A program made the position numbers and the translations under genes. From assembly GCA_016203765.1 (NCBI GenBank), contig JACQMB010000145.1, positions 1,124 to 65,123 on the forward strand: DNA of 64,000 nt. The letters run 5' to 3'. Source of the stretch: Deltaproteobacteria bacterium (GTDB lineage Bacteria; UBA10199; SPLOWO2-01-44-7). Positions 2,617 to 30,982 of the stretch are shown piece after piece. Position 1 is the first letter of the stretch, and each line of letters begins with the position of its first letter. Under the pieces are notes generated by a model. That model was not told the origin of the DNA and did no database searches. It saw only the letters and a list, made by a program, of their open reading frames with translations.

Positions 2617-2632
2617 TGCCCTAGGTTGCCGT

Positions 2633-3274: not shown

Positions 3275-3304
3275 ACAAAGAAAGAAAGGGGCGATAGAAG
3301 GGGG

Positions 3305-6232: not shown

Positions 6233-6233
6233 T

Positions 6234-8038: not shown

Positions 8039-8039
8039 C

Positions 8040-14015: not shown

Positions 14016-14933
14016 ATGACCAAACCAAGGGTTCTGATTACCGGTGTCAGCGGTCTGTTGGGGAGTAACCTGGCCTGGTTGTATCGAGACCGTTATTCCG
14101 TTTTGGGCCTTTACCGCCGTCATCCGGTTTCATGGCCCGGCGTTCGGACCCTCCGGCAGGACCTTCTGGAAATTTTGAGCTTGAAAAAATGCGTTCATGA
14201 TTTTCGTCCGGATATTCTGATTCATTGTGCCGCGCTGACCGATGTGGATGCCTGTGAGCGGAACAAACAGGAGGCGGAACAAGCCAATATCGAGGCGACC
14301 CGAAAGGTGGTGGATTGTTTGAACGGCTTGCCCACGCGGCTGATCCACATATCGACCGACTCTGTTTTTGACGGTGAGAAGGGAAATTACTCGGAGACGG
14401 ACCCGGTTCATCCGGTCAATCATTATGGCTGGACAAAATGGAAGGCGGAAACGGAGTCGTTAAAACGGAAAGGGACCTTGGTGTTCAGAACGACCGTTTT
14501 CGGATGGAACGTTCAGGAAAAGGAGAGCCTGGGGGAATGGGTTTTGCATCGGATGATGCGCAAGGAAAAGATTAACGGATTTAGCGACGTTGTTTTTTCT
14601 CCCCTTTACACCATGGAGTTGGGAAGGCTGATGGAAAAAACTTGGCAAAAGGGGCTGGCCGGTCTCTATCACTGCGCCGGATCGAACGCCTGCTCCAAAT
14701 ATGATTTCGCCGTTCAACTTGCCCGTGTGTTTCATCTGGATGAAACAGCCGTGAATTCGATCTCGGTGGATGCCCTTGCCCTGCCGGCCAGGAGGCCCAA
14801 GAATCTTTCGCTGAAAACATCTAAGTTAACGGAATCATTAGGAAATTCATTGCCAAGCGTTCAGCGATCGATTCAATCCTTTTTTGATGATTTTGAGCGC
14901 GGCCTCCCCCGGAAATTAAAAGGACTTGCATGA
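14016..14933 (+). CDS. RmlD-like NAD(P)-dependent sugar reductase (dTDP-4-dehydrorhamnose reductase family)
   Basis: Motifs are VLITGVSGLLGSNL, the catalytic YGWTKWKAE and HISTDSVFDG. The start could be ATG 14016 or ATG 13998; the ORF-track start at 13941 is probably too long. Confidence 0.75.
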   Translation: MTKPRVLITGVSGLLGSNLAWLYRDRYSVLGLYRRHPVSWPGVRTLRQDLLEILSLKKCVHDFRPDILIHCAALTDVDACERNKQEAEQANIEATRKVVDCLNGLPTRLIHISTDSVFDGEKGNYSETDPVHPVNHYGWTKWKAETESLKRKGTLVFRTTVFGWNVQEKESLGEWVLHRMMRKEKINGFSDVVFSPLYTMELGRLMEKTWQKGLAGLYHCAGSNACSKYDFAVQLARVFHLDETAVNSISVDALALPARRPKNLSLKTSKLTESLGNSLPSVQRSIQSFFDDFERGLPRKLKGLA

Positions 14934-16432
14934 AAGCACTGAGCCGCCAACAACTCGACGCCCTCTTTCGTGAAATCCGCGGGCGCTATCCCCGCCTGGC
15001 CGTTTTGGCCATTCCCTGGATTTTTTCCACGATGTGGTCCTATCCTTTAAAGCCGTCTCCCGAACATGTTCAACCCTTCCCGATTTTCGTTGCCATCTTG
15101 TTTCGGGTTCCCTGGCTGGCGCTGCGCGCCATCGCGTTAAGCGGGCGTATCCTATGGCTTCGCCTTTCCTTTCGGAATGCCCTGCGCGATTATCGTTCCC
15201 GATCGTTTGAGGGGCTGGCCAAGACCTGGGCTTTTTCCATGGAAAATTCCGGGGGGGACCGAGATTTTTATTTGGGGGATTTGGCGGAACAGCTCCGCTC
15301 CAGGAATGTTCGGGTGTTGACGTTGTATGATTACGGAACGAATAAAAAAGGATGGGGGAAGAGACAAAACGGGCCGCGGCTACCGGAGCTGGCTCTTCTT
15401 TCGTTCCGGTCCGTATTGAAGATGTTGGGGGAACAATGCCGGGCGGCGCTCCTTCTCTATTTCAAGGGGTTCGGGGAGAGGGATAAAACGTTGCGGGGTT
15501 TGATCTGGCTGGCCGGCCGGGATTGCCTCCGCGCGATGACTCTGCGCAACGGGCTCTTTTATTGGATCGGCAGGGAGGCGGCCCGCCGATGGAAACCCGT
15601 TTTTTTTATAACCTTGTATGAAGGGAATGCCTGGGAAAAGTGTCTGGCCTTGGGCCTTCGCTCCGTCGATTCCCCCTGCAAACTGGTGGGCTATCAGCAT
15701 ACGGTCATTATGCCTCACGCGTATGAACTGCAACGGCCGTCCAATTCCCTCGCGGGGATCAAACCTCCGGAATTGATCCTGAGTGTCGGCACGCGGCCGA
15801 TGCAATGGTTGCAGGCAAGTCATCAGCCGTTCGGAGTCCGTTTCATTCCCTTTGGGACCTTTCGTTATTTCAATCCGGACGAAAAGAGGGGAATCCCCCG
15901 TCCGGACGTCAAAACACTTTTGGTTCTGCCGGAAGGGATTGTCTCCGAGATGATTTTTCTGTTCGACGCGGCCCTCGATTTGGCGTCCCTCTTGCCCGAT
16001 TACCGGATTTTATTTCGTTGTCATCCCGCGATCCCTTTCGAAAAAGTCCGTTCGCGGTTAAAGCGGGATCTGGGGGACTGTCCCAATGTGTCCCTCTCCG
16101 GGGCGGGCCGCATTGAGGAGGATTTCCTGGCCGCTTCCATGATTCTTTACCGCGGTTCTTCGGCCATTCTCTATGCCATTTTAAGCGGGCTGAAACCGTT
16201 TTATTTGCGCAAAAATTCCGAGGAAGAGGTGATTGATCCGCTTTTTGATCTGGCCTCCTGGCGTCAGCGGGCCGATTCGGTTTCGGAATTGGCGGGCCAG
16301 ATGAGGAGCTATTCGGAAAGCGCTTTGTCCGAAATCCAAGATGATTGGCACAAGGCGAATCGGTTTGTCGGGGAATATGTACAGCCGGTCGGACCCCGGT
16401 CTTTTGACCGTTTTTTGGAGGCGCTCCAATGA
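14930..16432 (+). CDS. Hypothetical protein, possible GT-B-like / ulosonate-transferase-like
   Basis: It starts with an ATGA overlap and has a hydrophobic N-terminal segment. The C-terminal region KTLLVLPEG...ILFRCHPAIP...ILYRGSSAILYAILSG resembles the protein at 60256. I recognise no named family with confidence. Confidence 0.55.
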   Translation: MKALSRQQLDALFREIRGRYPRLAVLAIPWIFSTMWSYPLKPSPEHVQPFPIFVAILFRVPWLALRAIALSGRILWLRLSFRNALRDYRSRSFEGLAKTWAFSMENSGGDRDFYLGDLAEQLRSRNVRVLTLYDYGTNKKGWGKRQNGPRLPELALLSFRSVLKMLGEQCRAALLLYFKGFGERDKTLRGLIWLAGRDCLRAMTLRNGLFYWIGREAARRWKPVFFITLYEGNAWEKCLALGLRSVDSPCKLVGYQHTVIMPHAYELQRPSNSLAGIKPPELILSVGTRPMQWLQASHQPFGVRFIPFGTFRYFNPDEKRGIPRPDVKTLLVLPEGIVSEMIFLFDAALDLASLLPDYRILFRCHPAIPFEKVRSRLKRDLGDCPNVSLSGAGRIEEDFLAASMILYRGSSAILYAILSGLKPFYLRKNSEEEVIDPLFDLASWRQRADSVSELAGQMRSYSESALSEIQDDWHKANRFVGEYVQPVGPRSFDRFLEALQ

Positions 16433-17430: not shown

Positions 17431-18361
17431 TTTTGATTTGTCGAAAGTCAAACCACTCGAGGAAGTGCTGAAATACCGGACTTTTTGCCTGGAGGCGGTC
17501 CGTCAATCCTGCCGGGGGGGGACGATACGGCGAAACCATTCTCCGGTCAGCGGGGCCCGGTTGCTTTCCTGGGGAACCGTGGACGGTTTGGAATACGGAA
17601 TTTGCCCGAAAACGGGGAGTCTTTTTCTGACGGAGATCCCTGCTCCCGCCGCGTGGGCTTCTCTGCTCGATAAGGTCAACCGGTACCGTAATGAGCAGGC
17701 CTTCGACGTTCATTTAAAACAGTCTCGTTTAACCAGCGTTTATGAACCCAAAAAGGCTTGGATTGAAGACACGCTCCGGTGGCATCACCTGGAGAGACCC
17801 AAGGTGCTTGAGGTGACGACCCCCCCCAGTGAGTTGACGGCCCTCTTGCAAACCAGTCCCCTGGTGGAGGAGGTTGTCGTCTGGAATGAGACGAACCCCC
17901 GCCCGGAAGGGCTTTGGCCGGAAGCGGCGGACGCGGCCATTCTTTTGGAATCGCTTGATCGCTCGGGGGATCCGGCGGCATTTTTAAAGCGCGTCCATGA
18001 AAGTTTGAAACCCGGCGGGCTCCTTTTTTTGACGGCCCTGCTCGCCTCCGGTTTCGACATGAAGGTGTTGGGGACAAAAAATCTCTATCTGTGCCCCCCC
18101 GACCGGACGAATTGCTTTAGCCTGAACGGATTAACGCAACTGCTGGCTCAATCCGGTTTTACCTTTATTGAGGTGAGTACTCCCGGCATCCTGGATGTGG
18201 AGATTGTCCGGGCCCATTGCTTGCAGGATCCGTCCATTCGCCTCTCTCCGTTTGAAACAACGTTGCTCGATGCCGATCCGGAAAAACTGTCGGCATTGCA
18301 AATATTTTTACAGCAGAGCAATGTAAGCTCGTTTGCCCGCGTGGTGGCCAAAAAGAACTAA
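17405..18361 (+). CDS. Putative SAM-dependent methyltransferase-like protein
   Basis: The methyltransferase-like post-I/II region AAILLESLDRSGDPAAFLKRVHESLKPGGLLFLT is present. Motif I is degenerate (VLEVTTPPSE), so the function is uncertain. Confidence 0.55.
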   Translation: MQSIQTCFNFDLSKVKPLEEVLKYRTFCLEAVRQSCRGGTIRRNHSPVSGARLLSWGTVDGLEYGICPKTGSLFLTEIPAPAAWASLLDKVNRYRNEQAFDVHLKQSRLTSVYEPKKAWIEDTLRWHHLERPKVLEVTTPPSELTALLQTSPLVEEVVVWNETNPRPEGLWPEAADAAILLESLDRSGDPAAFLKRVHESLKPGGLLFLTALLASGFDMKVLGTKNLYLCPPDRTNCFSLNGLTQLLAQSGFTFIEVSTPGILDVEIVRAHCLQDPSIRLSPFETTLLDADPEKLSALQIFLQQSNVSSFARVVAKKN

Positions 18362-18891
18362 TGGTTATTTGGGTGACAGGATTGTCCGGAGCGGGGAAAA
18401 CGACCCTTTGTCGCGCCCTCTATGACAGATTGAAAACACATATTCCTCAGCTGGTCTGGCTCGACGGGGATGTTGTGCGAAAGGCTTTTGGAAATGATTT
18501 GGGATATTCCGAAGAGGAAAGGCAGACACAATTGAAGCGTTTGCAAAATCTCGCCAAGGTTCTTTCCCATCAGGGGCTGGTTGTTTTGGTTGCCGTTTTG
18601 TATTCTCATCCCGACTTTTTAAAATGGAATCGGCAGAATTTTCCGGAGTATTTTGAAATCTATTTATCCGTGGCTCTCGATGTGTTGCGGCAAAGAGACG
18701 AGAAAGGACTTTACAACGGGTCCGTGAGAAACGTTGTCGGGCTTGATATCCCTTGGCACCCCCCCCAAACCCCGGCTTTGAAAATAAATGTTGATTATAA
18801 AATACCGCCCGAACGATTAGCGCTGGATGTTATCTCTGCTATTCCAAAACTGGCAGAATGCCTGGAAATGCCGAGGAGAAAAAGAATATGA
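18361..18891 (+). CDS. Adenylyl-sulfate (APS) kinase family protein
   Basis: It has the P-loop [11 protein letters not shown] and [21 protein letters not shown] (the LDGD motif). The usual FISP-type segment is replaced by LYSHP. It is translationally coupled to both neighbours (TAATG at the 5' end, ATGA at the 3' end). Confidence 0.75.
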
Positions 18892-20495
18892 AAAAAACGA
18901 CGCAGTTGCGGCAATTATTATTTTCAGAAAGTTTGGAATTTTTGTGCGAGGCCCACAATGGGTTGAGCGCTAAGATTGTCGAAGAAGCCGGTTTTAAAGG
19001 GATCTGGGGAAGCGGATTATCTCTCTCCGCGGCGATGGCCGTTCGAGATAATAATGAGGCCAGTTGGACGCAGATTTTGGAGACGGTGGAGTTTATGTCC
19101 GATGCCACATCCATTCCTGTCTTGCTGGATGGAGATACCGGATATGGGAATTTTAATAATGTCCGCCGCCTTGTTCAAAAACTCGAGCAAAGAGGCATCG
19201 GCGGTGTTTGCATCGAAGATAAGCTATTTCCTAAAACCAATAGTTTTCTGAGGGGGGAAAAACAGCCGCTGGCGACTCTGGAAGAATTTACGGGCAAAAT
19301 CAAAGCAGCCAAAGACTCTCAGCGAGACAGTGATTTTTGCCTGGTGGCTCGGACCGAGGCCTTTATTGCCGGGTGGGGGTTATTCGAGGCCTTGCGCCGC
19401 GCCGATGCCTATCATCGTGCCGGGGCGGATGCCATTTTGATTCATAGTAAACTTTCCAAGCCGGATGAAGTCTTGGCATTTAAGAAAGAGTGGGGTCGCC
19501 GTTCTCCGGTGGTGATTGTTCCTACGACCTATTACGCAACACCGATGGAGGTTTTCCAAGAAGCGGGTTTTAGTACCGTTATCTGGGCCAACATGATTTT
19601 GCGCAGTGCGATCACGGCCATGAAAGCCGTTGCCTCACAACTGAAAAGGGAAAATTCTCTTTTGAGTGTGGAGGATAAAATTGTGCCCGTCAAAGAAGTG
19701 TTTCGTCTCCAAGGGGATCAGGAGTTGGAAGAGGCGGAAAGACTTTATTTGCCAAGCGTCGCCTCGGAAACCAAGGCCGTTATTTTAGCCGCTTCTCGCG
19801 GGGAAGTCTTAGATGCGTTGACCCAAGAAAGACCGAAGGCCATGATCCCCGTTGGGGGAGAGCCCTTGTTATTTCGGCAGATCCGAACGCTGCAAGAGGC
19901 GGGCGTGAAAGACGTGACCGTGGTGCGGGGTTATTGCAAAGAGGTGATTGACGCCCCTGGCCTTCGCTACGTGGATAATGAGATTTATGCCTCATCCAAG
20001 GAACTGGTTTCCCTATGGAAGGGAATCCAAAATTTATCGGGGCCCGCATTTATCGCCTATGGGGACATCCTTTATAAGAAGTATGTTCCAACTTTGCTGT
20101 TGCAGGAGGAAGAGGATTTTGTCATCGCCGTCGATTCTGAATGGGAGAGGAGCGGCAATCGAAAAAGATATGCTGATTATGTCTCCTGCGACGTCCCTTA
20201 CCGGCGGACATTATTGGATCACCCCGTTTATCTGACGAGGATGGATGCAGATTTAGTGCCGGCAACCATTTGTGGAGAATGGATTGGTCTTCTGCGGGCT
20301 TCAGCGGAGGGGATAAAAATTATTCAAAAAATATTAGCCGAACTGTCTCAACAAGAAGCATTTTCAAAGATGCGTATGGCGCATCTGTTCAATGCATTGA
20401 GACAAAAAGGTTATAAGGCCAGGGTTCATTATATTCGAGGCCATTGGTTGGATGTCGATGACCTTACGGATCTCGTTACGGCACACGCCTTTTAG
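18888..20495 (+). CDS. aepX: Phosphoenolpyruvate mutase fused to a C-terminal nucleotidyltransferase domain
   Basis: The ATG at 18888 overlaps the upstream stop (ATGA). The N-terminal domain has LDGDTGYG and the PEP-mutase-discriminating [10 protein letters not shown] (EDK-X5-NS, nt 19215-19244). The C-terminal roughly 240 aa are NTP-transferase-like ([32 protein letters not shown]). Confidence 0.85.
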
Positions 20496-20503
20496 AAAAT
20501 CGC

Positions 20504-21667
20504 ATGATTCAAGCCAAAGACTTTATTGAACCGGCATTGGAGCGAGGATATCGCTTCTGGTCAGGCGTCCCTTGTTCTTTTTTAACGCCGTTTATTAACT
20601 ATGTCATCCAGAATAAAGAGCTCCGGTATGTGGGGGCCTCGAGCGAAGGGGAAGCCGTCGCGATAGCGATCGGTAGTTACCTGGCCGGCAATAAATCGGT
20701 GGCCATTTGCCAAAACTCCGGTCTAGGGAATATGGTCAATCCGTTGACAAGCCTCAATTATCCTTTTCGGATTCCTTTGCTTTTGATTGTGACGCACCGA
20801 GGAGCCCCTGGCATCCAAGATGAACCCCAGCATGTCTTGATGGGTCAAATTACGGAAAAATTGTTAGAAACGATGCGCATCCCTTACCTCCCCTTTCCTG
20901 AGGAAGGTCGGGATGTGCAAAGGACTCTGGCAGAAGTGGAAAATTATATTGAAAAAGAGAATCTGCCGTTCGCTTTGATTATGAAAAAGGATGCTGTCAC
21001 TTCCTATCCTTTAGAACAAAAAATCACGTTTCACCATTTTCCCGTCTCCCCTGTTGAGGGGAAATTTTATTGGTCCGGTGATTCCCGAATGCGCCGCTTG
21101 GAAGCGATTCAGATAATTAAGGAAACGGCATCGCAACGAGCCCTTCTGATAGCTACAACCGGAAAAACCGGTAGAGAACTGTTCGCATTGGGTCATCAAT
21201 CCAATCAAATTTATATCGTGGGCGGGATGGGATGTGCTGCCGGAATCGGGTTGGGATTGAGTCTCGGACAGCCTTCCAAAAAGGTTTTGGTTTTGGATGG
21301 AGACGGGGCGGTCTTAATGAAGATGGGCACTTTGGCAACGATAGGGCACTATCAGCCAAAAAATTTGATTCATATTGTTTTGGACAATGAGGCTCATGAA
21401 TCAACGGGGGCACAGTTTACGGTGTCGGGGAGCACAGATATCGCCTCTGTCGCCTCTGCCTGCCGCTACCGAAAGCTTTTTCGCTGCGATCAGGCAAAAG
21501 ACTTAAAAAGGTATTTGGATTTGGCCATGCAATCCGAGGGCCCTGTGATGATTCATGTCAAAATCGCCGTCGGATCGGACCCCAAGTTGGGCCGTCCCAC
21601 GTTGACGCCCCATGAAGTCAAAGATCAGTTTGTCCGCCGAATGAATAAAGAAAGGAGCGATTTATGA
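20504..21667 (+). CDS. aepY: Phosphonopyruvate decarboxylase (ThDP-dependent)
   Basis: Motifs are FWSGVPCSFLTPF, GEAVAIAIGSYLAG and the ThDP motif LDGDGAVLMKMGTLATIG...IVLDNEAHESTG. It lies immediately downstream of the PEP mutase. Confidence 0.85.
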   Translation: MIQAKDFIEPALERGYRFWSGVPCSFLTPFINYVIQNKELRYVGASSEGEAVAIAIGSYLAGNKSVAICQNSGLGNMVNPLTSLNYPFRIPLLLIVTHRGAPGIQDEPQHVLMGQITEKLLETMRIPYLPFPEEGRDVQRTLAEVENYIEKENLPFALIMKKDAVTSYPLEQKITFHHFPVSPVEGKFYWSGDSRMRRLEAIQIIKETASQRALLIATTGKTGRELFALGHQSNQIYIVGGMGCAAGIGLGLSLGQPSKKVLVLDGDGAVLMKMGTLATIGHYQPKNLIHIVLDNEAHESTGAQFTVSGSTDIASVASACRYRKLFRCDQAKDLKRYLDLAMQSEGPVMIHVKIAVGSDPKLGRPTLTPHEVKDQFVRRMNKERSDL

Positions 21668-23004
21668 TAACAAAAGACCCCACCTTTTTGAAACGCCAGG
21701 GGGCCAATTTTTTATCTCTGATCAATGATTTAAAAAGAAACCGAAAAGCGGCCGCCCAAGATTTGCAGGTTTCCCTTGAGACAATAGAGAAGATCATCGC
21801 CGGGGAAAGCGATATTCCTCCGGGATTGATTCAGAGAGCTACGGAAGTTTGGCCGGTGAATCGGCGCGATTTCATGATTATGGAAGATGATTGTCCGGAG
21901 GGGGTTTTGGTGATGCGGGGAGAGGCGTCTGAAAAAAGTTCCCGCATTTTTACCCGGGGGGGAGCGGATTATTATGAATATCGGGATACGGCCATGTCGA
22001 AAGTGGCCCCCTTTCGTCCTGAATGGATTTTGGAACTTTGCACGGTGGAGGACAATGACCCGAAAAATTCCAGTTTGCGGTGGAATAACGGCCACTTTAT
22101 GCATCAGTTTACGATGTTTGTGGGCCCGGTCAATTTTTATTATATTGAAGAGAACCAAAAAAAGGTGATGGTCGCAAACACGGGGGATTCCATGTACATT
22201 ACCCCCTTTGTCCCGCACACTTTTGCGACGAGACAAAGGCAAAAAGGTCTCATTCTGGCTTTGACCTATGGAAACAAATTGCTCGGAGACGTCCAACAGG
22301 AAATGTCGAGCCTGGGTGGAGATATTCCGGGCCAATTTCTTTTGGAAACACGAAGCCGAGACGCCTATTTTGCCTCTCTGTTACAATTGCAGATGGCCGC
22401 TTTAAGCCTCTCTGCGGAAGATTTGATTGTGCAGACCGGTTTGCCTGCCGATCGCGTTCACCGGTGGATAAAGGGTGAAGCCTTTCCAACTCCTGAAGAA
22501 TACGGGAGGTTGGCTGATCGTTTGAATGTGAATGTTTATGATTTAATGCCTCCCGACGCTTTTGATCCCGGAGTCATTGTTAGCTATTTGTCGCATTCCA
22601 AGCCTAGGCGGTATTTTAATTGCCAAATCAGAGAACTCGCTTCCATTCGCTATCTCCCTTACTCCAAGGCCCTTCTTCTGGATGTTTTGGAAAAGGCAGA
22701 GACGTTTCCCTTCAAAGTGCCCCTGCATCAATACTGCTATAATTTTGGAGATGTGTCGGTGACGCTCCGATGGGATTGGAAAGGACAGACCAGAGAAGTG
22801 GAAGTGGGTCCCAATGATTCGGTTTATGTGAAACCGTTTGTGCCTCACTCCTTTTCGCCTTGTGCGGCCAAGCCAGCTTCTTTGTTGAGTTTGCGCATCG
22901 GCGGAAAAGGCACTGGAGAGCCCCAAAGAGAACTGTCCCATATTGGAAAAAAGAATATCCAACGCATCTATCAAGAGTATTCACTTTGGTATAAGGAAGA
23001 ATAA
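21664..23004 (+). CDS. mpnS: MpnS/HEPD-family two-cupin non-haem iron oxygenase, residue pattern favouring methylphosphonate synthase
   Basis: It starts with an ATGA overlap and is 446 aa. It has two HTH-like plus cupin repeats (ANTGDSMYITPFVPHTFATR and VGPNDSVYVKPFVPHSFSP). The first cupin carries N141, H144, Q148, F158, I179 and H185. It sits between ppd and an iron ADH. The family call is stronger than the MpnS-versus-HEPD call. Confidence 0.6.
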   Translation: MITKDPTFLKRQGANFLSLINDLKRNRKAAAQDLQVSLETIEKIIAGESDIPPGLIQRATEVWPVNRRDFMIMEDDCPEGVLVMRGEASEKSSRIFTRGGADYYEYRDTAMSKVAPFRPEWILELCTVEDNDPKNSSLRWNNGHFMHQFTMFVGPVNFYYIEENQKKVMVANTGDSMYITPFVPHTFATRQRQKGLILALTYGNKLLGDVQQEMSSLGGDIPGQFLLETRSRDAYFASLLQLQMAALSLSAEDLIVQTGLPADRVHRWIKGEAFPTPEEYGRLADRLNVNVYDLMPPDAFDPGVIVSYLSHSKPRRYFNCQIRELASIRYLPYSKALLLDVLEKAETFPFKVPLHQYCYNFGDVSVTLRWDWKGQTREVEVGPNDSVYVKPFVPHSFSPCAAKPASLLSLRIGGKGTGEPQRELSHIGKKNIQRIYQEYSLWYKEE

Positions 23005-23007
23005 GCG

Positions 23008-23721
23008 ATGAAAGCCATTTTGCTCACCGCGGGACAAGGAAGCCGTTTGCTGCCCTATACGCAATCGATGCCAAAACATTTGCTCCCCCTCGGTTCCACC
23101 ACCATTATTCATCGAACAATCAAAATATTAAGGGATATCGGGATTCAAGACATTGCAATGGTCGTAGGTTATTTAAAGGAAAAATTTTATGAGGCCTTTC
23201 CTAAAGATATTCAATTTTATACCAATGAAGCTTATCCAGTCACCGACCAGGCCGCGAGTTTGGCGAAGGCAGTGGAGAAATTGGAAGATGATTTTTTGGT
23301 CATTGCAGGGGATTTATTTTGTCCCCGAAAGGTTTTTGTTCAGATATTGGAAAAACCCCATCCCATCTGTCTAGCCATTGAAAAAAGGAAAGGGCCATTT
23401 AATGACGTGACGGAAAAGGTCTGCACGAGAGGGGAGTCCATTTTTAAGATCGGGAAATTGAACGTTTTGAACGGAGAAGCCAATGGAGAATTTTTGGGAT
23501 TGACAAAGGTGAGAAAGGAAAAGGCGTCGTTTTTTCTCCGACATCTTAAAGCCGCGCTTTTAGAAAACCCCAGGAGCGCCATCATTCACGTCCATCAAAA
23601 AATAATCGATGCCGGATGTCCTCTTCCTTATATCCACTGCGGAGATTCCTGGTGTGAAATTGATGAGCCCGCCACCTGGAAAAAGGCAAAAGAGATTTTT
23701 CAAAAAACCCCTGATTACTGA
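23008..23721 (+). CDS. Nucleotidyltransferase (sugar-phosphate or phosphonate cytidylyltransferase-like)
   Basis: It has a canonical N-terminal signature: MKAILLTAGQGSRLLPYTQSMPKHLLPLG. Confidence 0.8.
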   Translation: MKAILLTAGQGSRLLPYTQSMPKHLLPLGSTTIIHRTIKILRDIGIQDIAMVVGYLKEKFYEAFPKDIQFYTNEAYPVTDQAASLAKAVEKLEDDFLVIAGDLFCPRKVFVQILEKPHPICLAIEKRKGPFNDVTEKVCTRGESIFKIGKLNVLNGEANGEFLGLTKVRKEKASFFLRHLKAALLENPRSAIIHVHQKIIDAGCPLPYIHCGDSWCEIDEPATWKKAKEIFQKTPDY

Positions 23722-23779
23722 GGAGCATGATTTAGATCATGTTGACTCTTGTTTGCATTAGTTCTAGCGGTGACCGGTT

Positions 23780-25270
23780 ATGGGAAACGTGCCTGCATGC
23801 CGGGTGCCCGTGACCCCTTCATTAGAAGCATTGTTAAATCCGGAACTCTTCAAAAAGGAACCGCTTTTCACCTCTCCTTTAAAACCGCCGCAAAAAGGGG
23901 AGAAGGTTCATCTCCTTTCAGAAGAGGACGTCAATGCCATTCGAAAACTAAGAGGGGCGGTGGTCGATCTCCATCCCGGAATGGGGGGCGTTACCCCGGA
24001 CAAGCTGATTGCCATGATCAAGAGCGGCATCCGATTGACTTCTATCGATTATATGATGACCCGGGGTTGTAATTTCGAATGCACTTGGTGTTTCGCGGGT
24101 TCGGGTCCTTTGCAAAAAGAATATCTTCCCTTTCAAAAACTAGCATCTATTACGCAAGAAGCGGCAAAGTTGGGCGTTACCCTTTTTATTTTAACGGGCG
24201 GAGAACCCCTTGTTTATCGGGACCCGGCGTTAGGGCAGCAGAAAGGCATTGGGGATCATTTTTTTAGAGTCGTGAAGATGATTCGAGATACTTACAGCCA
24301 ACAAGGCCTCTCCGCGAAAATATTGACCTTCGACGATGTCGCATTGATTTCTCCCGAGATTGCAAAGCGGTTTGCGGAATACGAAATAGGTCTCTGTACA
24401 AAAGGCGACACCCTTGCCCCCGAGCTCCAAGATTATAAAGTCAATCAGGTTGGGGCTTTTGACAAGATGCAAAGAGGTTATAAGAATCTTGTGGATGCCG
24501 GTTATGGAAGGGACCCAAGACTAAGAGTCGTCGTGAATTCTGTTTTGGATCACACCACCTTCGATGGCATGTTGGATTTGCATCTATGGGTTATGGAGAA
24601 TGGTTTTGATCATTCCATTGTCCCCGTTCATTATTGCGGCAATGCTGAAAATGAAGATCAAGAGGCAGGGGTTCACTCTCCTCATGTCAAGGTTTTGTAC
24701 GATGTTCTTTCTGAGATTGACAGGAAGCGCTTTGGCATTGAGTGGAAACCCTGGTCCGCCTTTCCTTACAATAAAACTTGCAACCGTAACCGCTCTGGGA
24801 TTCATATCCGGGCCAATGGCGATGTGACGGCTTGTTCCGAATCGCCGGGGCCTGAGCTAACTGGGCGTTACACTTTCGGTAATATTTTCGCCCCTGGTTT
24901 TTCTCTCGAAAAAGTTGTGAAGGATGAAAAGTTAGAAGCCTATCGAGAGGAGTTTAAGAGAGGATATGGGACCTTTGTTTGTTCTCCGGAGGTGTGTGAT
25001 CTGTACGCCCATGACCTTTGTTTGGGCGGGTGCGCCACCCGCTCCGCTTATTCCAAAATAGATATTCAAACGGGCCTCGTCGTTAAAAATGAAAATTTTC
25101 ACAATTACAGTGAGAAGAGAGAAGACCCCTTATGTCCTGCTTGGACTTTGTTGGCTATGCGCCAGGGGATTTTGAGAGAAGGTTTATTAGACAATATCCG
25201 GCATCGGATCATTTCCAGAAGTACAAGACTAAAAGATTTGGAAGGAATGGAACATTCCATTCCTTGTTAG
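23780..25270 (+). CDS. Radical SAM protein with C-terminal SPASM/twitch-like Cys cluster
   Basis: The CxxxCxxC motif is at residues 97-104 (RGCNFECTWCFAG). GGEPL is present. The C-terminal Cys-rich region is CSESPG...CSPEVCDLYAHDLCLGGCATRS. The start is uncertain because about 90 aa precede the cluster. Confidence 0.8.
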   Translation: MGNVPACRVPVTPSLEALLNPELFKKEPLFTSPLKPPQKGEKVHLLSEEDVNAIRKLRGAVVDLHPGMGGVTPDKLIAMIKSGIRLTSIDYMMTRGCNFECTWCFAGSGPLQKEYLPFQKLASITQEAAKLGVTLFILTGGEPLVYRDPALGQQKGIGDHFFRVVKMIRDTYSQQGLSAKILTFDDVALISPEIAKRFAEYEIGLCTKGDTLAPELQDYKVNQVGAFDKMQRGYKNLVDAGYGRDPRLRVVVNSVLDHTTFDGMLDLHLWVMENGFDHSIVPVHYCGNAENEDQEAGVHSPHVKVLYDVLSEIDRKRFGIEWKPWSAFPYNKTCNRNRSGIHIRANGDVTACSESPGPELTGRYTFGNIFAPGFSLEKVVKDEKLEAYREEFKRGYGTFVCSPEVCDLYAHDLCLGGCATRSAYSKIDIQTGLVVKNENFHNYSEKREDPLCPAWTLLAMRQGILREGLLDNIRHRIISRSTRLKDLEGMEHSIPC

Positions 25271-26425
25271 ATGTCCTCCCCTTTCTTTAATCCTGTTCAG
25301 GTTGTTTTTGCAGAAAGGCTTTCGGAAGGCTTGCCTCCTTTGCTGAAAGGAAGACGTGCGTCTGTTTTGACGACGAAAGGAATGAAGCAAAGAGAGGGAT
25401 TCAGACTTTTAGAAGAAGCCCTGGGTGGAAAAAGTTGCGGGGTTTGCACCGATGTTGTCCCGAATCCGGATGTGGAATCCATTCTTTCTTGCACGCGGCA
25501 GATTTCCTCCTTCAAACCGGAGATACTCATTGCCTTGGGAGGCGGAAGTGTTTTGGATGCAGCGAAGGTGGTCGCCATTTTGCTTGCGGCCCCTTTTTCT
25601 AAGACTGCCCTGCAAGAGATTTTGGATGGCAACATTTCTTTGCCCAAGGAAATGGATGCCTTGCCGGTGATTGCTATCCCTACCACGTCGGGGACCGGTT
25701 CGGAGGTAACTTCGTGGAGCGCCGTTTGGAATAAAAAGACAGGCCAGAAATATTCTCTGTCGCATCAGTGTATGTATCCCGAGGCCGCGCTTCTGGTTCC
25801 TGCCCTCACGGCAACCCTTTCTTATGAAAACACGCTGTTTCCCGCTTTGGACGCCCTTTCCCAAAGCATGGAAACCGTTTGGAACAGGAATGCCAATCCC
25901 GTTTCCGATGCGCTGGCCATGCAGGCAATGACCTGTCTGTTTGGAATTTTAAAGAAGGACTTTCGCCGTTCTTTTGAAGCTTTGTCCGTGCGGAAGGAGT
26001 TGCAAAAAGCCAGTCTGTTAACGGGCCTTGCCTTTAGCAACACGGAAACGGCGATCGCCCATTCCCTTTCCTATCCTTTGACAGGCAAAAAGGGGGTTCC
26101 GCACGGTTTGGCTTGTAGTTTTACCCTCCCGGAAATTTTGCGTTTTAATTATCAAGGGGCTCCGGAACGCGTAACCCTTGTTTTAAAAGCCCTAGGTTTT
26201 TCTCATGTTGAAGAAGCGATAGAAGCTTTGTATATGGTTTTTGAAGACTTAGGTATTTGGCAGTATCTTAGAAATTACATTATGGACCCTTGTGAACTGC
26301 AAGAGTTGCAACACCTTTTGGTCTCTGCTCAGCGCGCCCGGAATAATATCGTCCCCTTTTCTCAAGAAGCGGCTGTAGAGTTATTGACCGCCGCTTTTGG
26401 CCGCATCGTGGGCCGAAGATGTTAA
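25271..26425 (+). CDS. Iron-containing (group III) alcohol dehydrogenase, candidate phosphonoacetaldehyde reductase
   Basis: Motifs are ALGGGSVLDAAKVVA, IPTTSGTGSE and a His-rich metal site (AHSLSYPLTGKKGVPHGLA). The functional call comes from its position in the phosphonate sub-cluster. Confidence 0.75.
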   Translation: MSSPFFNPVQVVFAERLSEGLPPLLKGRRASVLTTKGMKQREGFRLLEEALGGKSCGVCTDVVPNPDVESILSCTRQISSFKPEILIALGGGSVLDAAKVVAILLAAPFSKTALQEILDGNISLPKEMDALPVIAIPTTSGTGSEVTSWSAVWNKKTGQKYSLSHQCMYPEAALLVPALTATLSYENTLFPALDALSQSMETVWNRNANPVSDALAMQAMTCLFGILKKDFRRSFEALSVRKELQKASLLTGLAFSNTETAIAHSLSYPLTGKKGVPHGLACSFTLPEILRFNYQGAPERVTLVLKALGFSHVEEAIEALYMVFEDLGIWQYLRNYIMDPCELQELQHLLVSAQRARNNIVPFSQEAAVELLTAAFGRIVGRRC

Positions 26426-27189
26426 AAGATCATCTCCGACATCGCAGAATAGTGTTCGGCGCTTGGACCTCTCTGGCCCATCCCCAAATTACCGAGATGT
26501 TCGCCTCCGTCATGAAGCCCGATTTCATCGGGATCGACATGGAGCATTCCACCATCAGCCAGGGGGAAGCGCAAAGGATTATCGCCGCCGGCCAGGCCTG
26601 CGGGGTTCCCGTTTTGCCGCGGCTGGCCTCCCATGATATCGAAGCGATGCGCCGCCTCTGCGATTCGGGGGCAGACGGCCTGATCGTTCCCATGGTCAAT
26701 ACGCCCGAGGAACTGGAACGGGTGGTGAAGGGGTGCAAATATCCCCCCGTGGGCCAAAGGGGCTACGGGGTGGCGCGGGCCCAGGGGCACGGTGCCCGTT
26801 TTGATGAATATATTTCCGCGTGGAATGCAAAATCGGTTCTGATCATTCAGATTGAATCCATTCAAGCCGTGGAAAATATCGACCGGCTGTTGGACAATGA
26901 GCAGGTGGATGGAGTGATGATCGGCCCCTACGACATCTCCGGCTCGCTGGGAATTCCGGGAAAGCTGATCGACCCCAAAGTTTTGCAGGCCGGCGAGCGG
27001 GTCCTTGCGGCGTGCGCGCGCCGGGGAAAGGCTTGCGGCACGCAAATTACGGAACTCCCCGACGAGAAAAAAATTAAGGAGGCCATCGATCGCGGTTATA
27101 CCGTCATTGTCCTGGCCTCCGATGTCTTTTTGATGTGGCGATGGTCGGAACAAATGAGAGGGTTGATCGCTCGTGTACGGCAGTCTTGA
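26419..27189 (+). CDS. HpcH/HpaI family class II (pyruvate-type) aldolase
   Basis: Motifs are FGAWTSLAHPQITEMFA, DFIGIDMEHS, LIIQIESIQAVENID and MIGPYDISGSLG. Confidence 0.85.
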   Translation: MLKDHLRHRRIVFGAWTSLAHPQITEMFASVMKPDFIGIDMEHSTISQGEAQRIIAAGQACGVPVLPRLASHDIEAMRRLCDSGADGLIVPMVNTPEELERVVKGCKYPPVGQRGYGVARAQGHGARFDEYISAWNAKSVLIIQIESIQAVENIDRLLDNEQVDGVMIGPYDISGSLGIPGKLIDPKVLQAGERVLAACARRGKACGTQITELPDEKKIKEAIDRGYTVIVLASDVFLMWRWSEQMRGLIARVRQS

Positions 27190-27778
27190 AACCGTTGTCC
27201 AAAGGGCAAAGGCACTGATTTTTGATTTTGACGGGACGCTGGTCGATTCCAACCCCATCAAATTGTACGCCTTCGAAAAATGTTTTTCGGATTTTGTGGA
27301 AAAACAAAGCGAGATCATGGACTATTGCCTGGCGCATCATCATGTCTCGCGCTTTGATAAATTTCGGCATGTTTTTGAAACAATCCTGCACCGACCCTAT
27401 ACGCCGGAGTGGGAGCGGAAAATGCTGAGGCGCTATGCCGAGGAGACGACGGAGCAGGTGATCGGCGCCCCCGAAATTCCAGGGGCCGTCTCCTTTGTCA
27501 AGCGTTGGAAAAAGAAGAAGGAGGTCGTTTTGCTCTCCACGACGCCGGATGAGATTTTGAAACATATTTTGGCCAGGCGGGAGATGGAACATCTCTTTTC
27601 CGTCATTCGCGGAGCCCCAGTTCATAAGGCCTCGTGGATGGACGGGTTTATGCGGGGAAGGGGTTTGGAGAAGAGGGAGGTGGTGTTCTTCGGCGATTCC
27701 GACGAAGACGCCGAGTCGGCAAAAACGGCCGGGGTGATTTTTGTGAAGGTGGAAGGAGATCAAACGTTTCGATCATGA
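27173..27778 (+). CDS. HAD-superfamily hydrolase (phosphatase)
   Basis: GTG start. It has motif I LIFDFDGTLVDS and motif IV FFGDSDEDAESA. Confidence 0.8.
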   Translation: MYGSLETVVQRAKALIFDFDGTLVDSNPIKLYAFEKCFSDFVEKQSEIMDYCLAHHHVSRFDKFRHVFETILHRPYTPEWERKMLRRYAEETTEQVIGAPEIPGAVSFVKRWKKKKEVVLLSTTPDEILKHILARREMEHLFSVIRGAPVHKASWMDGFMRGRGLEKREVVFFGDSDEDAESAKTAGVIFVKVEGDQTFRS

Positions 27779-28539
27779 TAAAGAACCAAACCATGGATCA
27801 AAGATTTTCTTTGCGGGGCAAGGCGGCGGTGGTCGTCGGCGGGGCGGGTTATCTTTGTTCCGCTTTATCGAGGGCGATGTTGGAATCGGAAATGAAGGTC
27901 GCTATTTTGGATGTTGTGAAGGAACCGCCAGCCGATTTGTCTGGAGAGGTTTTCTTTTTGCAGTGCGACGCCGCTCAAAAAGAGGCATTGTTGAAAGGCC
28001 GCGAGGCCGTTCTACAAAAATTCGGCCGTGTGGACGTTTTGTTAAACGGCGCCACCTGCAACGCCCCAACCCCCTTTTTGGAAATCAGCGAGCCGGAGAT
28101 TGACCGGATCTTGCGAGCCAATGTCTACGCCACCCTCTACGGCTGCCAGGTGTTTGGAGAGGCGATGGTTAAACAACGCAAGGGAAGCATTATCAATTTT
28201 GCCTCTGCCTCCAGCACAACGCCCCTCTCCAGGGCCTTTGTCTACTCCGCCGCCAAGGCGGGGGTTCTGAATCTGACCAAAAACCTGGCCAGGGAATGGG
28301 CCCCCTATCAGGTGCGCGTCAACGCCCTTCAACCCGGTTTTTTCCCGACCGAGTGGAGTCGGAAGCATTTTATTGACGAGGAACGCCAGGCGAAAATTTT
28401 GGGTCATACTCCGATGAGGCGCTTTGGCAAACCGGAGGAATTGACCGGGGCCGTTCTTTGGCTGGCCTCCGAAGCCGCCTCTTTCGTGACCGGCTCCGTT
28501 GTAACCATAGACGGCGGTTTTACCGCCATGACGATTTGA
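27775..28539 (+). CDS. Short-chain dehydrogenase/reductase (SDR)
   Basis: The ATG at 27775 overlaps the upstream stop (ATGA). Motifs are GKAAVVVGGAGYLCSAL, YSAAKAG and PGFFPT. The ORF-track start at 27634 is an over-extension. Confidence 0.85.
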   Translation: MIKNQTMDQRFSLRGKAAVVVGGAGYLCSALSRAMLESEMKVAILDVVKEPPADLSGEVFFLQCDAAQKEALLKGREAVLQKFGRVDVLLNGATCNAPTPFLEISEPEIDRILRANVYATLYGCQVFGEAMVKQRKGSIINFASASSTTPLSRAFVYSAAKAGVLNLTKNLAREWAPYQVRVNALQPGFFPTEWSRKHFIDEERQAKILGHTPMRRFGKPEELTGAVLWLASEAASFVTGSVVTIDGGFTAMTI

Positions 28540-28541
28540 AT

Positions 28542-29285
28542 ATGACGAAGAGTGTTGCCATCACCGGAGGCAATCGCGGCATCGGAAAGGGAATCGCCGA
28601 TTATTTTTTGGCCAAGGGGCATCGGGTGGCTGTTTGCTCCCGCTCCCCAAGAGAAAAAGGTTTGGCGAAGGCCATCCTGCACCTGCAAATAGACGTTCGT
28701 AAAAGGGAAGACCAAAAACTGTTTTTGGCGCATGTTCAAGAATCCTTTGGGGGGTTGGATGTCGTTGTCCATTGCGCCGGCGTTTCCCGGTGGAGGCCGC
28801 TCGAAGCGGCGGACGAGACTTTCGTGGAAGAGGTGATAGAGACGAATTTGCTGGGGACGTTGTGGGGTTGCCAGGCGGCCGCGCAGGTTTTGGGGCCGGG
28901 GGGGGCCATTGTCAATGTCTCCAGCCTGGCGGGCAAGCGCGGCTCCGCCAATAACAGCGTCTATTGCGCCTCCAAGTTTGCCGTCAACGGACTCACGCAG
29001 GCCTTGGCCAAGGAGCTTGGGCCGCGGGGGGTGCGCGTGAATGCGGTTTGTCCGGTTTATGTGGAAACCGATTATATTCTTCAATCCCTGAGTGAAAAAA
29101 ACTCTCCGGCGGGGGGAGGATCGGTGCGGAGTTATCTGGAAAATTTTGCCAAAACGCAGACGGCCCTGGGGCGTCTCCCCAGAGTGGACGAGATTGCCAA
29201 GACCGTTTATTTTTTTGCCAGCGACGAGGCCTCCGCCGTTACCGGACAATGTCTCAACGTGGATTGCGGAACCTTTCCCCAATAA
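28542..29285 (+). CDS. Short-chain dehydrogenase/reductase (FabG-like SDR)
   Basis: ATG at 28542. Motifs are VAITGGNRGIGKGIA, NVSSLAG, YCASKFA and NAVCPVYVETD. Confidence 0.85.
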   Translation: MTKSVAITGGNRGIGKGIADYFLAKGHRVAVCSRSPREKGLAKAILHLQIDVRKREDQKLFLAHVQESFGGLDVVVHCAGVSRWRPLEAADETFVEEVIETNLLGTLWGCQAAAQVLGPGGAIVNVSSLAGKRGSANNSVYCASKFAVNGLTQALAKELGPRGVRVNAVCPVYVETDYILQSLSEKNSPAGGGSVRSYLENFAKTQTALGRLPRVDEIAKTVYFFASDEASAVTGQCLNVDCGTFPQ

Positions 29286-30041
29286 ATGACCACAAAAATT
29301 GCCGCCGTGATTCCCGCCCGCATGGCCTCGCAGCGCCTTCCGGGCAAGCCGTTATTGGAAATCGAGGGACTGCCGATGATTGAGCACGTTCGGCGGCGCG
29401 TCCTTTTGGCCAAGGGGTTTTCCCGCGTGGTTGTCGCCACCTGTGATCCGATCATTGCCGAGACGGTTGAAGATTACGGGGGAGAGGTTTTAATGACCAG
29501 CCCCGCGCATCAGGTGGCCACCGAGCGGATCATCGAGGCGATACAACATTTGGACTGCACGCATGTGATCAATGTCCAAGGCGATGAAGTTTTGGTCTTG
29601 CCCTCCGACCTGGAAAAAATGACTTCGGCCATCCAGGCCCATCCGGAAAAGCCGGTTTGGAATGCGGTGGCGCCCCTTGAGAGCGAAGAGACGCTCAAGG
29701 ACCAATCGATCGTCAAGTGCCGGCTTTCCCCTTCCGGCCGGATTCTCTCCTTTGTACGCGAGGGATCTTCCGAGACGGGGCCGCTCTATTGGGTGATCGG
29801 CCTTTTGGCTTATCGTCGCGGCATTTTAGAGGAGTTTGCGCGGTGGAAGCGGAGCGCCTTGGAAGCGAAGGCCTCGATTGAGCAGATGCGCTTTTTGGAA
29901 AACGACGTGCCGATCGCCTCCGTTCTTTTTGCCAAGGCCTATCCCGGCATTAATGAAGAGCGGGAGGTAGGCCCGGTGAAGGATTATTTGCACGAGGACA
30001 GGCTTCAGAGATCCGTTTTGCGAAAGGTCCTTGCCTCATGA
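29286..30041 (+). CDS. kdsB: KdsB-like cytidylyltransferase (CMP-ulosonic acid synthetase family)
   Basis: Motifs are IAAVIPARMASQRLPGKPLLEIEGLPMIEHV, VVVATCD and INVQGDEVLV. The family call is solid, but the substrate need not be Kdo. Confidence 0.7.
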   Translation: MTTKIAAVIPARMASQRLPGKPLLEIEGLPMIEHVRRRVLLAKGFSRVVVATCDPIIAETVEDYGGEVLMTSPAHQVATERIIEAIQHLDCTHVINVQGDEVLVLPSDLEKMTSAIQAHPEKPVWNAVAPLESEETLKDQSIVKCRLSPSGRILSFVREGSSETGPLYWVIGLLAYRRGILEEFARWKRSALEAKASIEQMRFLENDVPIASVLFAKAYPGINEEREVGPVKDYLHEDRLQRSVLRKVLAS

Positions 30042-30982
30042 GAACCGTTTACGTCGCTTTGTCCAAGTTTTGCGAACAGGACGACGGCCCGCGCCGCGTT
30101 TTGACGGAGGCCGGACTCGATGTTTTGGAAAATAAAACGGGGAGGCGGCTTCGCGAAGAGGAGATGTACGCTTTGTTAAAAGACGTGGACGGCGTGCTGG
30201 CGGCCGTGGAGCCTTATCGGGCCGGCTTGCTGGAAAAATTGCCGAGGTTGAAATGTATCAGCCGCTGCGGCGTGGGAACCGATAACATTGATTTGGAAGC
30301 GGCCGAAAAATACGGCAAGGCGGTTTTCAACACGCCGGATGAAATCGTGGAGCCGGTGGCGCAGATGACCGTGGCGATGATTTTGAACTTGGCCCGCCGT
30401 TTAAATCGGTACGCCTCCGATTTTTGGAAAGGGGAGTGGGTCAAACGGAGCGGTTTTCTCCTTTCGGAGTGGACGGCGGGTATTATAGGCTTTGGACGCG
30501 TCGGCAAAAGGGTCGCCCATTATCTAAAACCCTTCGGGACACGCATTTTGGTTTATGATCCCGCGGTGTCTCCGGCCCAATTTCCTGAATTTTTGTTTTG
30601 CCGGTCGCTGGACGAACTTTTGAGTCAATCCGACATCGTCACCTTGCACGCGGGCCGGCCGACGCGGGAGGGAGTTTTAATGAACCTGGAGTCCTTTAGG
30701 AAAATGAAACCGGGGAGTTATTTTGTCAACACGTCGCGGGGATACCTGGTTGACGAAACGGCGCTCCATGAAATGTTGGTCTGCGGCCATTTGGCCGGCG
30801 CGGCCCTCGATGTTTTTGCCCAGGAACCCTACCAAGGGTCTTTGAACTCTCTCCTACAGGTGATAGGCACTCCCCATGCGGCGACTCTGACCCGGGCCTC
30901 CCGGTCGGCTATGGAGCTGAAGGCCGCGCAAAACCTGGCCTGTTTTTTCTCAACATGTACGAAAACCACTGGAAGCATTTGA
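30038..30982 (+). CDS. D-isomer-specific 2-hydroxyacid dehydrogenase (phosphoglycerate dehydrogenase-like)
   Basis: It starts with an ATGA overlap. It has the NAD loop GIIGFGRVGKRVAHYL, AALDVF and the catalytic His region GTPHAAT. Confidence 0.85.
   Translation: MRTVYVALSKFCEQDDGPRRVLTEAGLDVLENKTGRRLREEEMYALLKDVDGVLAAVEPYRAGLLEKLPRLKCISRCGVGTDNIDLEAAEKYGKAVFNTPDEIVEPVAQMTVAMILNLARRLNRYASDFWKGEWVKRSGFLLSEWTAGIIGFGRVGKRVAHYLKPFGTRILVYDPAVSPAQFPEFLFCRSLDELLSQSDIVTLHAGRPTREGVLMNLESFRKMKPGSYFVNTSRGYLVDETALHEMLVCGHLAGAALDVFAQEPYQGSLNSLLQVIGTPHAATLTRASRSAMELKAAQNLACFFSTCTKTTGSI

Follow-up and report, generated by a model that had tools for sequence, protein, structure and literature searches.

What does a compact set of phosphonate genes make in the middle of a sugar operon, and what could a radical S-adenosylmethionine (SAM) enzyme and a sulfate-activation-type kinase contribute to it? 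These questions are raised by positions 18361-26425 of a 64-kb stretch of DNA (contig JACQMB010000145.1, hereafter the window) from a metagenome-assembled genome (MAG) of a groundwater deltaproteobacterium. All seven genes of this module lie on the + strand; they encode a phosphoenolpyruvate (PEP) mutase (Ppm), a phosphonopyruvate decarboxylase (Ppd), an iron alcohol dehydrogenase (Fe-ADH) and a cupin oxygenase, along with two nucleotidyltransferase (NTase) domains, a radical SAM/SPASM enzyme and a kinase resembling adenylylsulfate (APS) kinases. It is considered likely that they represent one horizontally acquired module, lodged in a surface-glycan operon, which would make methylphosphonate and activate it for attachment. 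The steps of this model rest on homology or gene context, and the core four on family membership.

The nature of the C1 product depends on the oxygenase, which shows the double helix-turn-helix (HTH) and cupin architecture of approximately 450 aa at full length (with matches to HTH_31 and Cupin_2). Its residues 4-444 align to 8-451 of the methylphosphonate synthase (MpnS) of N. maritimus (6B9S; 444 bits, E 4e-132), an alignment that covers the full length of the protein. According to the rule quoted in PMC11978286, MpnS is told apart from hydroxyethylphosphonate dioxygenase (HEPD) by a 2-His-1-Gln triad together with Phe and Ile beside the Gln. The five markers of the window protein (H144, Q148, F158, I179 and H185) are identical to those of 6B9S (H148, Q152, F162, I184 and H190). 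Owing to the 444-bit match and these five residues, the C1 product is called methylphosphonate and the oxygenase, as judged from its sequence, is a methylphosphonate synthase and not a HEPD. The original prediction had described it as MpnS/HEPD-like, a description that can now be sharpened to MpnS, as all five published sequence markers are present. In the public annotation the protein is listed as "hypothetical protein HY466_06670".

The four core steps of the original prediction (PEP mutase, decarboxylase, reductase and oxygenase) are all present, as indicated by family models together with the solved-structure homologue. In the hidden Markov model (HMM) searches that it had proposed, Ppm scored 371.4 bits with TIGR02320 (equivalog cut-off 319.55; PF13714, E 7e-59), while the next best model, phosphonopyruvate hydrolase, gave 244 bits and remained under its own cut-off of 374. 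The EDKXXXXXNS motif separates Ppm from the other members of the isocitrate-lyase superfamily (PMC6697681), and the predicted EDK-X5-NS sequence is indeed found at residue 120 of the window protein (numbered from a longer ORF that exists from 18858). The start at 18888 has an AGGAG 8-9 nt upstream and agrees with the public 535-aa gene call, which is named phosphoenolpyruvate mutase by NCBI (MBI4125590.1). Ppd also exceeds its equivalog cut-off (TIGR03297, 423.4 bits vs 312.5; E 7e-127), and both of its thiamine diphosphate (ThDP) domains, PF02776 and PF02775, match. For the Fe-ADH, TIGR03405 (Phn_Fe-ADH) is by far the best model (325.4 bits; next model 175.7), and the NCBI pipeline (PGAP) labels the protein phosphonoacetaldehyde reductase; its score falls under the equivalog cut-off of 423.7, which counts against the assignment. 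The Fe-ADH is therefore given as a probable phosphonoacetaldehyde reductase, making 2-hydroxyethylphosphonate (HEP). Across the module genes, HMM E-values range from 1e-32 to 1e-127, so that the gene set is far beyond chance.

Gene content was surveyed around two kinds of loci (numbered with the prefix L): the best 80 metagenomic mpnS loci, with 38 long loci serving for gene-content counts, and 37 loci of the radical SAM family in genome contigs (33 non-redundant genomic loci), co-location being defined as within 10 kb. Homologues of the Fe-ADH are present in 24 of the 38 long mpnS loci, and 21 of the 33 radical SAM loci also have one. The mpn cluster of N. maritimus shares ppm, ppd, the Fe-ADH gene, mpnS and a stand-alone NTase gene with the window, and the same five core genes are found in typical marine mpnS loci. 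In contrast to the thaumarchaeal cluster, the module of the deltaproteobacterial MAG adds the radical SAM/SPASM enzyme, the APS-kinase-like gene and a second NTase, fused to Ppm. With this core, the known mpn pathway gains a new member, which the radical SAM/SPASM enzyme, the kinase and the doubled NTase make a variant.

The extent of the module is marked by base composition. In each of the seven genes, the G+C content at third codon positions (GC3) falls within 0.46-0.52, as against 0.58-0.69 in the flanking genes; of the immediate neighbours, the methyltransferase gene that ends at 18361 has 0.63 and the HpcH/HpaI gene that starts at 26419 has 0.68. The steps coincide exactly with 18361 and 26425, independently backing the sub-cluster limits predicted earlier; as a consequence, the kinase and radical SAM genes belong with the phosphonate genes and not with the surrounding sugar genes. 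This pattern suggests that the seven genes arrived jointly in an already existing glycan operon. The original prediction spoke of eight co-directional, mostly overlapping genes. The common direction stands, but there are seven tightly packed ORFs, eight being the number of catalytic domains (the fused Ppm-NTase protein had been counted twice), and overlaps of 4 nt occur at two junctions only, apsK/ppm (as ATGA) and ppd/mpnS. The junction of the radical SAM and adh genes has zero gap, and the remaining three have gaps of 8, 3 and 58 nt. Promoter- and terminator-like sites between 9500 and 28000 are as numerous as in shuffled sequence, so that no internal punctuation can be claimed, and a single long transcript is compatible with the data. 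A Piscirickettsiaceae MAG (L016) has these seven functions in another gene order, and a second MAG (HY609_) holds the same genes as the source MAG (HY466_).

Table 1. Genes of the phosphonate module, with positions in the window and the matches on which each name is based.
Feature	Position	Strand	Length	Supporting matches
APS-kinase-like P-loop kinase	18361-18891	+	176 aa	PF01583, NF004041
PEP mutase (N-terminal) fused to LicC/PntC-like nucleotidyltransferase (C-terminal)	18888-20495	+	535 aa	TIGR02320, PF13714, PF12804
Phosphonopyruvate decarboxylase (Ppd, ThDP enzyme)	20504-21667	+	387 aa	TIGR03297
HTH and cupin oxygenase, assigned as methylphosphonate synthase (MpnS)	21664-23004	+	446 aa	6B9S match and markers
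Stand-alone LicC/PntC-like nucleotidyltransferase	23008-23721	+	237 aa	PF12804, PF00483
Radical SAM/SPASM enzyme	23780-25270	+	496 aa	PF04055, PF13186
Iron alcohol dehydrogenase (Fe-ADH), probable phosphonoacetaldehyde reductase	25271-26425	+	384 aa	PF00465, PF25137, TIGR03405

Both NTase domains belong to PF12804 (the fused one spanning aa 307-427 in the 18858 numbering), and the stand-alone protein also matches PF00483. LicC is a CTP:phosphocholine cytidylyltransferase and PntC a phosphonate cytidylyltransferase. These two enzymes are among the best solved relatives of the stand-alone NTase (LicC 1JYK, E 5e-12; PntC 6PD1, E 1e-9 over residues 2-183) as well as of the Ppm-fused domain (1JYK, E 2e-11; 6PD1, E 2e-4). 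Fusion of Ppm to PF12804 is the commonest type of Ppm fusion, and activation with CMP is an established logic of phosphonate tailoring (PMC6697681). The window resembles the Pnt pathway (PntC 6PD1/6PD2) and LicC in its PF12804 NTases and in the Ppm-PF12804 fusion, whereas PntC has been characterised on 2-aminoethylphosphonate (AEP) and the module has no AEP transaminase; the putative NTase substrates would therefore be methylphosphonate and/or HEP. It is thus reasonable to infer, as the original prediction did from the presence of two such domains, that the phosphonate is activated as a nucleotide conjugate; by analogy CMP is expected, and AMP would be possible too.

The presence of two NTases may be understood from the composition of related loci. 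A homologue of the stand-alone NTase gene lies beside mpnS in 35 of the 38 long metagenomic mpnS loci; in L087, for example, mpnS (61% identical) is followed by an NTase gene (52% identical to the stand-alone NTase of the window). The Ppm-NTase fusion, on the other hand, is closest to that of a Ryanbacteria MAG (L008; mutase part 73% and NTase part 56% identical), a locus which has the radical SAM gene and no mpnS. The window accordingly looks like the union of a set comprising the ppm-NTase fusion, ppd, adh and radical SAM genes with an mpnS accompanied by its own NTase, and on account of this union it is suggested that each of the two NTases may have a phosphonate of its own.

The original prediction placed the kinase and the radical SAM enzyme outside the core phosphonate pathway. 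This view is shared here, with the addition that both recur in related phosphonate clusters. The kinase matches PF01583 (E 1.6e-32) and passes the cut-off of NF004041 (135 bits vs 127), while on the canonical TIGR00455 it scores 126.5 bits, under the cut-off of 138.7. In C. jejuni, Cj1415-Cj1418 make CDP-phosphoramidate 3'-phosphate, the likely donor for the capsule phosphoramidate (PMC11800397). By description and context, the window is alike in having an APS-kinase homologue (as Cj1415) and a PF12804-type NTase (as Cj1416), and CDP-amidate and CMP-methylphosphonate are, in our view, near-isosteric. Unlike in C. jejuni, the module has neither a counterpart of the glutamine kinase Cj1418 nor one of the amidate hydrolase Cj1417, and the window kinase is closest to kinases adjoining ATP sulfurylase. 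By this analogy, the kinase may, on a slight balance of probability, phosphorylate the 3'-OH of a nucleotide-phosphonate, giving a donor that would resemble 3'-phosphoadenosine 5'-phosphosulfate (PAPS).

The company kept by such kinases lends substance to this proposal. APS-kinase-like genes, with no ATP sulfurylase in range, are found inside the mpnS clusters L016, L122, L126, L128 and L132, the last four being marine, and the kinase gene adjoins the NTase gene in L122 and L126; among the long metagenomic mpnS loci, 4 of 38 have one. Furthermore, a Ca. Scalindua MAG (JAIQZU010000084.1; L023:7455-8783) encodes a 442-aa fusion of APS_kinase and NTP_transf_3 (PF12804), directly upstream of an Fe-ADH gene which is followed by the radical SAM/SPASM gene. 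Approximately 22 protein clusters of this fusion are available, all of them 81-100% identical to the Scalindua protein. Some of the Scalindua-type fusions are named by JGI after the Cj1415/Cj1416 orthologue groups, and the same holds for a homologue that is 58% identical to the window kinase. In the marine mpnS loci L090, L091, L105 and L131, a homologue of ATP sulfurylase (36-38% identical to that of L084) lies 1-2 kb from mpnS, with no APS kinase in range. Together with the mpnS loci that have the kinase and no sulfurylase, this gives the impression that enzymes of the sulfate-activation type recur in methylphosphonate clusters.

The strongest competing explanation, and a serious one, is that the protein is an ordinary APS kinase which supplies PAPS to a sulfotransferase of the island for glycan sulfation and has no role in phosphonate chemistry. 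Apart from the score above the NF004041 cut-off, the best solved relatives of the kinase are APS kinases (95 bits). The three nearest homologues on long contigs (59-63% identical) all lie in glycan clusters and have an ATP sulfurylase gene after them, and one of these clusters also has genes for a Sulfotransfer_3 protein and a CysQ-like phosphatase. The island itself holds a Sulfotransfer_3 gene (30955-32148; sulfotransferase by its NCBI name), and the kinases of other phosphonate clusters are merely 27-42% identical to that of the window. Taken jointly, the sulfurylase-adjoining relatives, the island sulfotransferase and this low identity favour the ordinary PAPS role and tell against a phosphonate substrate. 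Nevertheless, no ATP sulfurylase is found across the 64-kb window, the kinase gene has the GC3 of the module (0.475) and not that of the glycan flanks, its stop overlaps the start of ppm, and kinases recur in mpnS clusters without sulfurylase, the L023 copy being fused to a PntC-like NTase. The (F/I)ISP motif of APS kinases is replaced by VLYSH in the window kinase; the change from ISP to YS was dropped as a discriminator of kinase roles, since the sulfurylase-adjoining kinases carry VLYSH as well, which if anything is in keeping with the ordinary role. The loci of these nearest homologues (L084, L085 and L086) share a conserved trio of APS kinase, ATP sulfurylase and a pyruvate-kinase-like protein.

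The radical SAM/SPASM enzyme carries a CX3CX2C motif at C97/C101/C104 and eight further invariant Cys (286, 334, 352 in a GX4C, 401, 406, 414, 418 and 452), enough for two predicted auxiliary clusters. Homologues 55-78% identical to it are found in Woesearchaeota, Patescibacteria, Omnitrophota, Acidobacteriota, Planctomycetota and Proteobacteria, and an N-terminal extension of 85 residues is conserved across the family. The NCBI annotation of this protein (418 aa) starts at M79 and drops 78 of these conserved N-terminal residues (consensus KVPxTxxLxxLLxPxLFxKEPIFT...). Among curated radical SAM subfamilies (NCBIfam; anSME, sactipeptide maturases, MoaA, viperin and others), the best score was 47 bits against a cut-off of 625 (StsB), the matches covering the generic core only; likewise, a PDB sequence search matched the cluster-binding core alone. 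No characterisation of the family was found in the literature searched.

In the genome-neighbourhood comparison proposed earlier, this enzyme recurs with ppm-ppd-adh, just as APS-kinase-like genes recur in mpnS clusters. Besides the Fe-ADH gene, ppd is near the radical SAM gene in 18 of the 33 loci, ppm in approximately 20 and a gene resembling mpnS in 12. The combination of ppm-ppd-adh with the radical SAM gene and without mpnS was seen in at least ten loci, among them L008, L014, L021, L026, L034-L038 and L041, and of the best 80 metagenomic mpnS loci a single one (L123) has the radical SAM gene. The rarity near mpnS and the linkage to ppm-ppd-adh place the enzyme outside canonical methylphosphonate synthesis and tie it to the HEP-making genes; its inferred substrate is HEP or the nucleotide ester of HEP. 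A comparable position is known from fosfomycin biosynthesis, in which Ppm is fused to a cytidylyltransferase, Ppd and an Fe-ADH make HEP, and a radical SAM enzyme acts after nucleotide activation of HEP (PMC6697681). The Streptomyces system (Fom1, Fom2, FomC, Fom3 and Fom4) is alike in its Ppm-NTase fusion, Ppd, Fe-ADH and radical SAM enzyme, and L001 and L016 even have a PF01467-Ppm fusion of the Fom1 type. The position of Fom3 in the pathway is comparable as well, but the radical SAM enzyme of the window is of the SPASM type and a Pfam search revealed no B12-binding domain (PF02310) in it, making Fom3-like methyl transfer unlikely.

The association has been noticed before and not explained. 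In Campylobacter GCF 385, genes for a radical SAM enzyme and an adenylylsulfate kinase lie on the flanks of ppm-ppd, a combination left without explanation (Li & Horsman 2022, PMC8942020); the likeness to the window is by gene names only, and none of the 37 radical SAM family loci in genome contigs is from Campylobacter. Apart from that remark and Fom3, no SPASM radical SAM enzyme on HEP or methylphosphonate was found in the literature. It is tentatively proposed, with somewhat more doubt than confidence, that the family is a new phosphonate-tailoring enzyme acting on HEP or its nucleotide ester, linked to a kinase that would furnish a PAPS-like 3'-phospho-NMP-methylphosphonate donor. A bolder version, in which the enzyme is an O2-independent methylphosphonate synthase that cleaves HEP by radical C-C scission, appears improbable.

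Some observations detract from a phosphonate substrate for this family. The AlphaFold (AF2) model (pLDDT 83) gave anSME as its best Foldseek match (TM 0.66, 15% identity), followed by SkfB, SuiB, CteB, BlsE, DesII and viperin; these are generic SPASM/twitch relatives only (13-19% identity), and no functional assignment follows. In approximately 10 of the 33 loci, phosphonate genes are absent from a range of 10 kb, and in L023 neither ppm nor ppd accompanies the adh and radical SAM genes in that range. It is conceivable, though unlikely, that the enzyme is an anSME-like protein or peptide maturase, with a sulfatase-family or other protein as its target, that merely travels with glycan clusters and performs no phosphonate chemistry. 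The fold matches to anSME, SkfB, SuiB and CteB, the roughly one third of family loci lacking a phosphonate neighbour within 10 kb, and the frequency of sulfatase-family genes in mpnS loci and in radical SAM loci would be in line with this. However, no NCBIfam model of anSME or another maturase came near its cut-off, the window lacks a sulfatase gene, and the genes adjoining the radical SAM gene, in the window as in L016, are too closely spaced for a precursor-peptide gene. Conservation of the kind seen here between archaea and bacteria (55-78% identity and numerous invariant Arg, His and Lys residues) is moreover unusual for peptide maturases, and the linkage is specific to ppm-ppd-adh and not to any single glycan gene. 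An enzyme working on HEP or its nucleotide ester thus remains the preferred reading.

The destination of the product is suggested by the surrounding genes, since the module lies inside a co-directional array that spans at least 23 to 42619. This array includes WbuX with HisH- and HisF-like partners, NeuB, two CMP-sugar synthetases, DegT, PglD-like enzymes, dehydratases and reductases, as well as a Wzy-like protein, a YfhO-like protein, a carbamoyltransferase, a second radical SAM/SPASM enzyme, a UDP-GlcNAc 2-epimerase and a UDP-sugar dehydrogenase. By analogy with N. maritimus, the obvious acceptor would be a surface glycan. It is very unlikely that the product is instead released as a small molecule, be it an antibiotic akin to fosfomycin or a storage compound; Ppm-NTase, Ppd, Fe-ADH, the radical SAM enzyme and the cupin-HTH protein superficially mirror Fom1, Fom2, FomC, Fom3 and Fom4, but the radical SAM enzyme lacks the B12-binding domain, the oxygenase is a 446-aa MpnS and not the 198-aa HppE epoxidase, and the context is one of glycan and not of antibiotic synthesis, with NeuB, CMP-sugar synthetase, aminotransferase, Wzy-like and carbamoyltransferase genes in the window array and glycosyltransferases, flippases and CDP-alcohol transferases in the related loci. 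HppE was ruled out as an identity for the oxygenase by its score of 34 bits and by the markers.

Least credible of all is that the oxygenase is a HEPD yielding hydroxymethylphosphonate, as the superfamily and architecture held in common and a second-best solved match to S. albus HEPD (6B9R, 278 bits) are outweighed by the 444 bits of N. maritimus MpnS, by Phe158 and Ile179 where the S. albus enzyme has Tyr and Gly at the two Gln-adjacent columns, and by a mere 20.7 bits with the HEPD PhpD (3G7D); this identity was ruled out. Two MpnS-like proteins of other loci (L015:8270-9490 and L018:6585-7823) keep the His/Gln/His triad and have Val or Ala, together with His, at the Phe/Ile positions. Being neither of the MpnS nor of the HEPD type, they may form a third specificity class.

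In the pathway proposed for the module, PEP would be converted to phosphonopyruvate by the mutase domain and decarboxylated to phosphonoacetaldehyde by Ppd, which the Fe-ADH would reduce to HEP. MpnS would then turn HEP and O2 into methylphosphonate and CO2. The two LicC/PntC-like NTases would convert phosphonates to nucleotide conjugates; HEP, on which Fom1 also acts, is a plausible substrate for one of them and methylphosphonate for the other. The radical SAM/SPASM enzyme may work on HEP or its nucleotide ester, resulting either in a second modified phosphonate head group or in an O2-independent conversion, and the APS-kinase-like enzyme may add a 3'-phosphate to the nucleotide-phosphonate, in the way that Cj1415 phosphorylates CDP-amidate, so that a PAPS-like donor would result. 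Finally, the activated phosphonate would be passed to the glycan by a transferase. Two points sit poorly with this scheme: MpnS needs O2 and is an awkward partner, within one operon, for a radical SAM enzyme that is O2-labile, and no transferase of the LicD, CDP-alcohol-transferase or EptA (sulfatase-family) type was found in the island. As candidates only, the products of 8031-10049, 14930-16432 and 30955-32148 may be considered for the phosphonate/glycan transfer. The first two are large ORFs without a Pfam family (672 aa and 500 aa, respectively), and the 14930-16432 protein has weak matches to models of "surface carbohydrate biosynthesis protein" only.

In waters starved of phosphate, methylphosphonate is accepted as the compound from which aerobic methane derives, and most work on MpnS has concerned marine Thaumarchaeota and SAR11. 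The module places a marker-complete MpnS in a groundwater deltaproteobacterium and ties two enzymes of unexplained role, the radical SAM/SPASM family and the APS-kinase-like kinase, to the HEP pathway. If the radical SAM enzyme does transform HEP, a new phosphonate reaction, possibly oxygen-independent, would be at hand; were it an anaerobic synthase, DPANN archaea, CPR bacteria, Omnitrophota and anammox bacteria of anoxic groundwater and sediment would have a methane-precursor source of their own. If the kinase makes a PAPS-like phosphonate donor, the delivery of phosphonates to glycans in clusters without LicD-type transferases would be explained. As the module is compact (8 kb), both ideas are directly testable.

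Several features of the surrounding island are worth recording in their own right. A HisF-like cyclase, a class I glutamine amidotransferase and the N-acetyl sugar amidotransferase WbuX (TIGR03573, 327 bits) are encoded at 1723-4519, the usual trio for an acetamidino sugar, and a nonulosonic acid set (NeuB and CMP-sugar synthetase) lies downstream of this trio at 5498-8038. Beyond the module, overlapping genes at 26419-33915 encode first an HpcH/HpaI aldolase, a HAD phosphatase, two SDRs and a CMP-sugar synthetase, followed by a PGDH-like 2-hydroxyacid dehydrogenase, a sulfotransferase, a HisC/CobD-like pyridoxal phosphate (PLP) enzyme and a methyltransferase. The PLP enzyme, dehydrogenase and phosphatase recall, as we take it, the serinol-phosphate and ethanolamine-phosphate branch of C. 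jejuni (Cj1436/Cj1437). The aldolase and HAD genes (26419-27778) were considered for a RhiG-like aldol step on phosphonoacetaldehyde and rejected, as none of 120 related loci has a homologue and their GC3 is of the flank type. Further downstream, the glycan operon contains the second radical SAM/SPASM gene (33861-34742; 293-aa ORF), which is unrelated to that of the module and is followed by genes for the Wzy-like protein (34708-35991) and the YfhO-like membrane protein (35951-37942).

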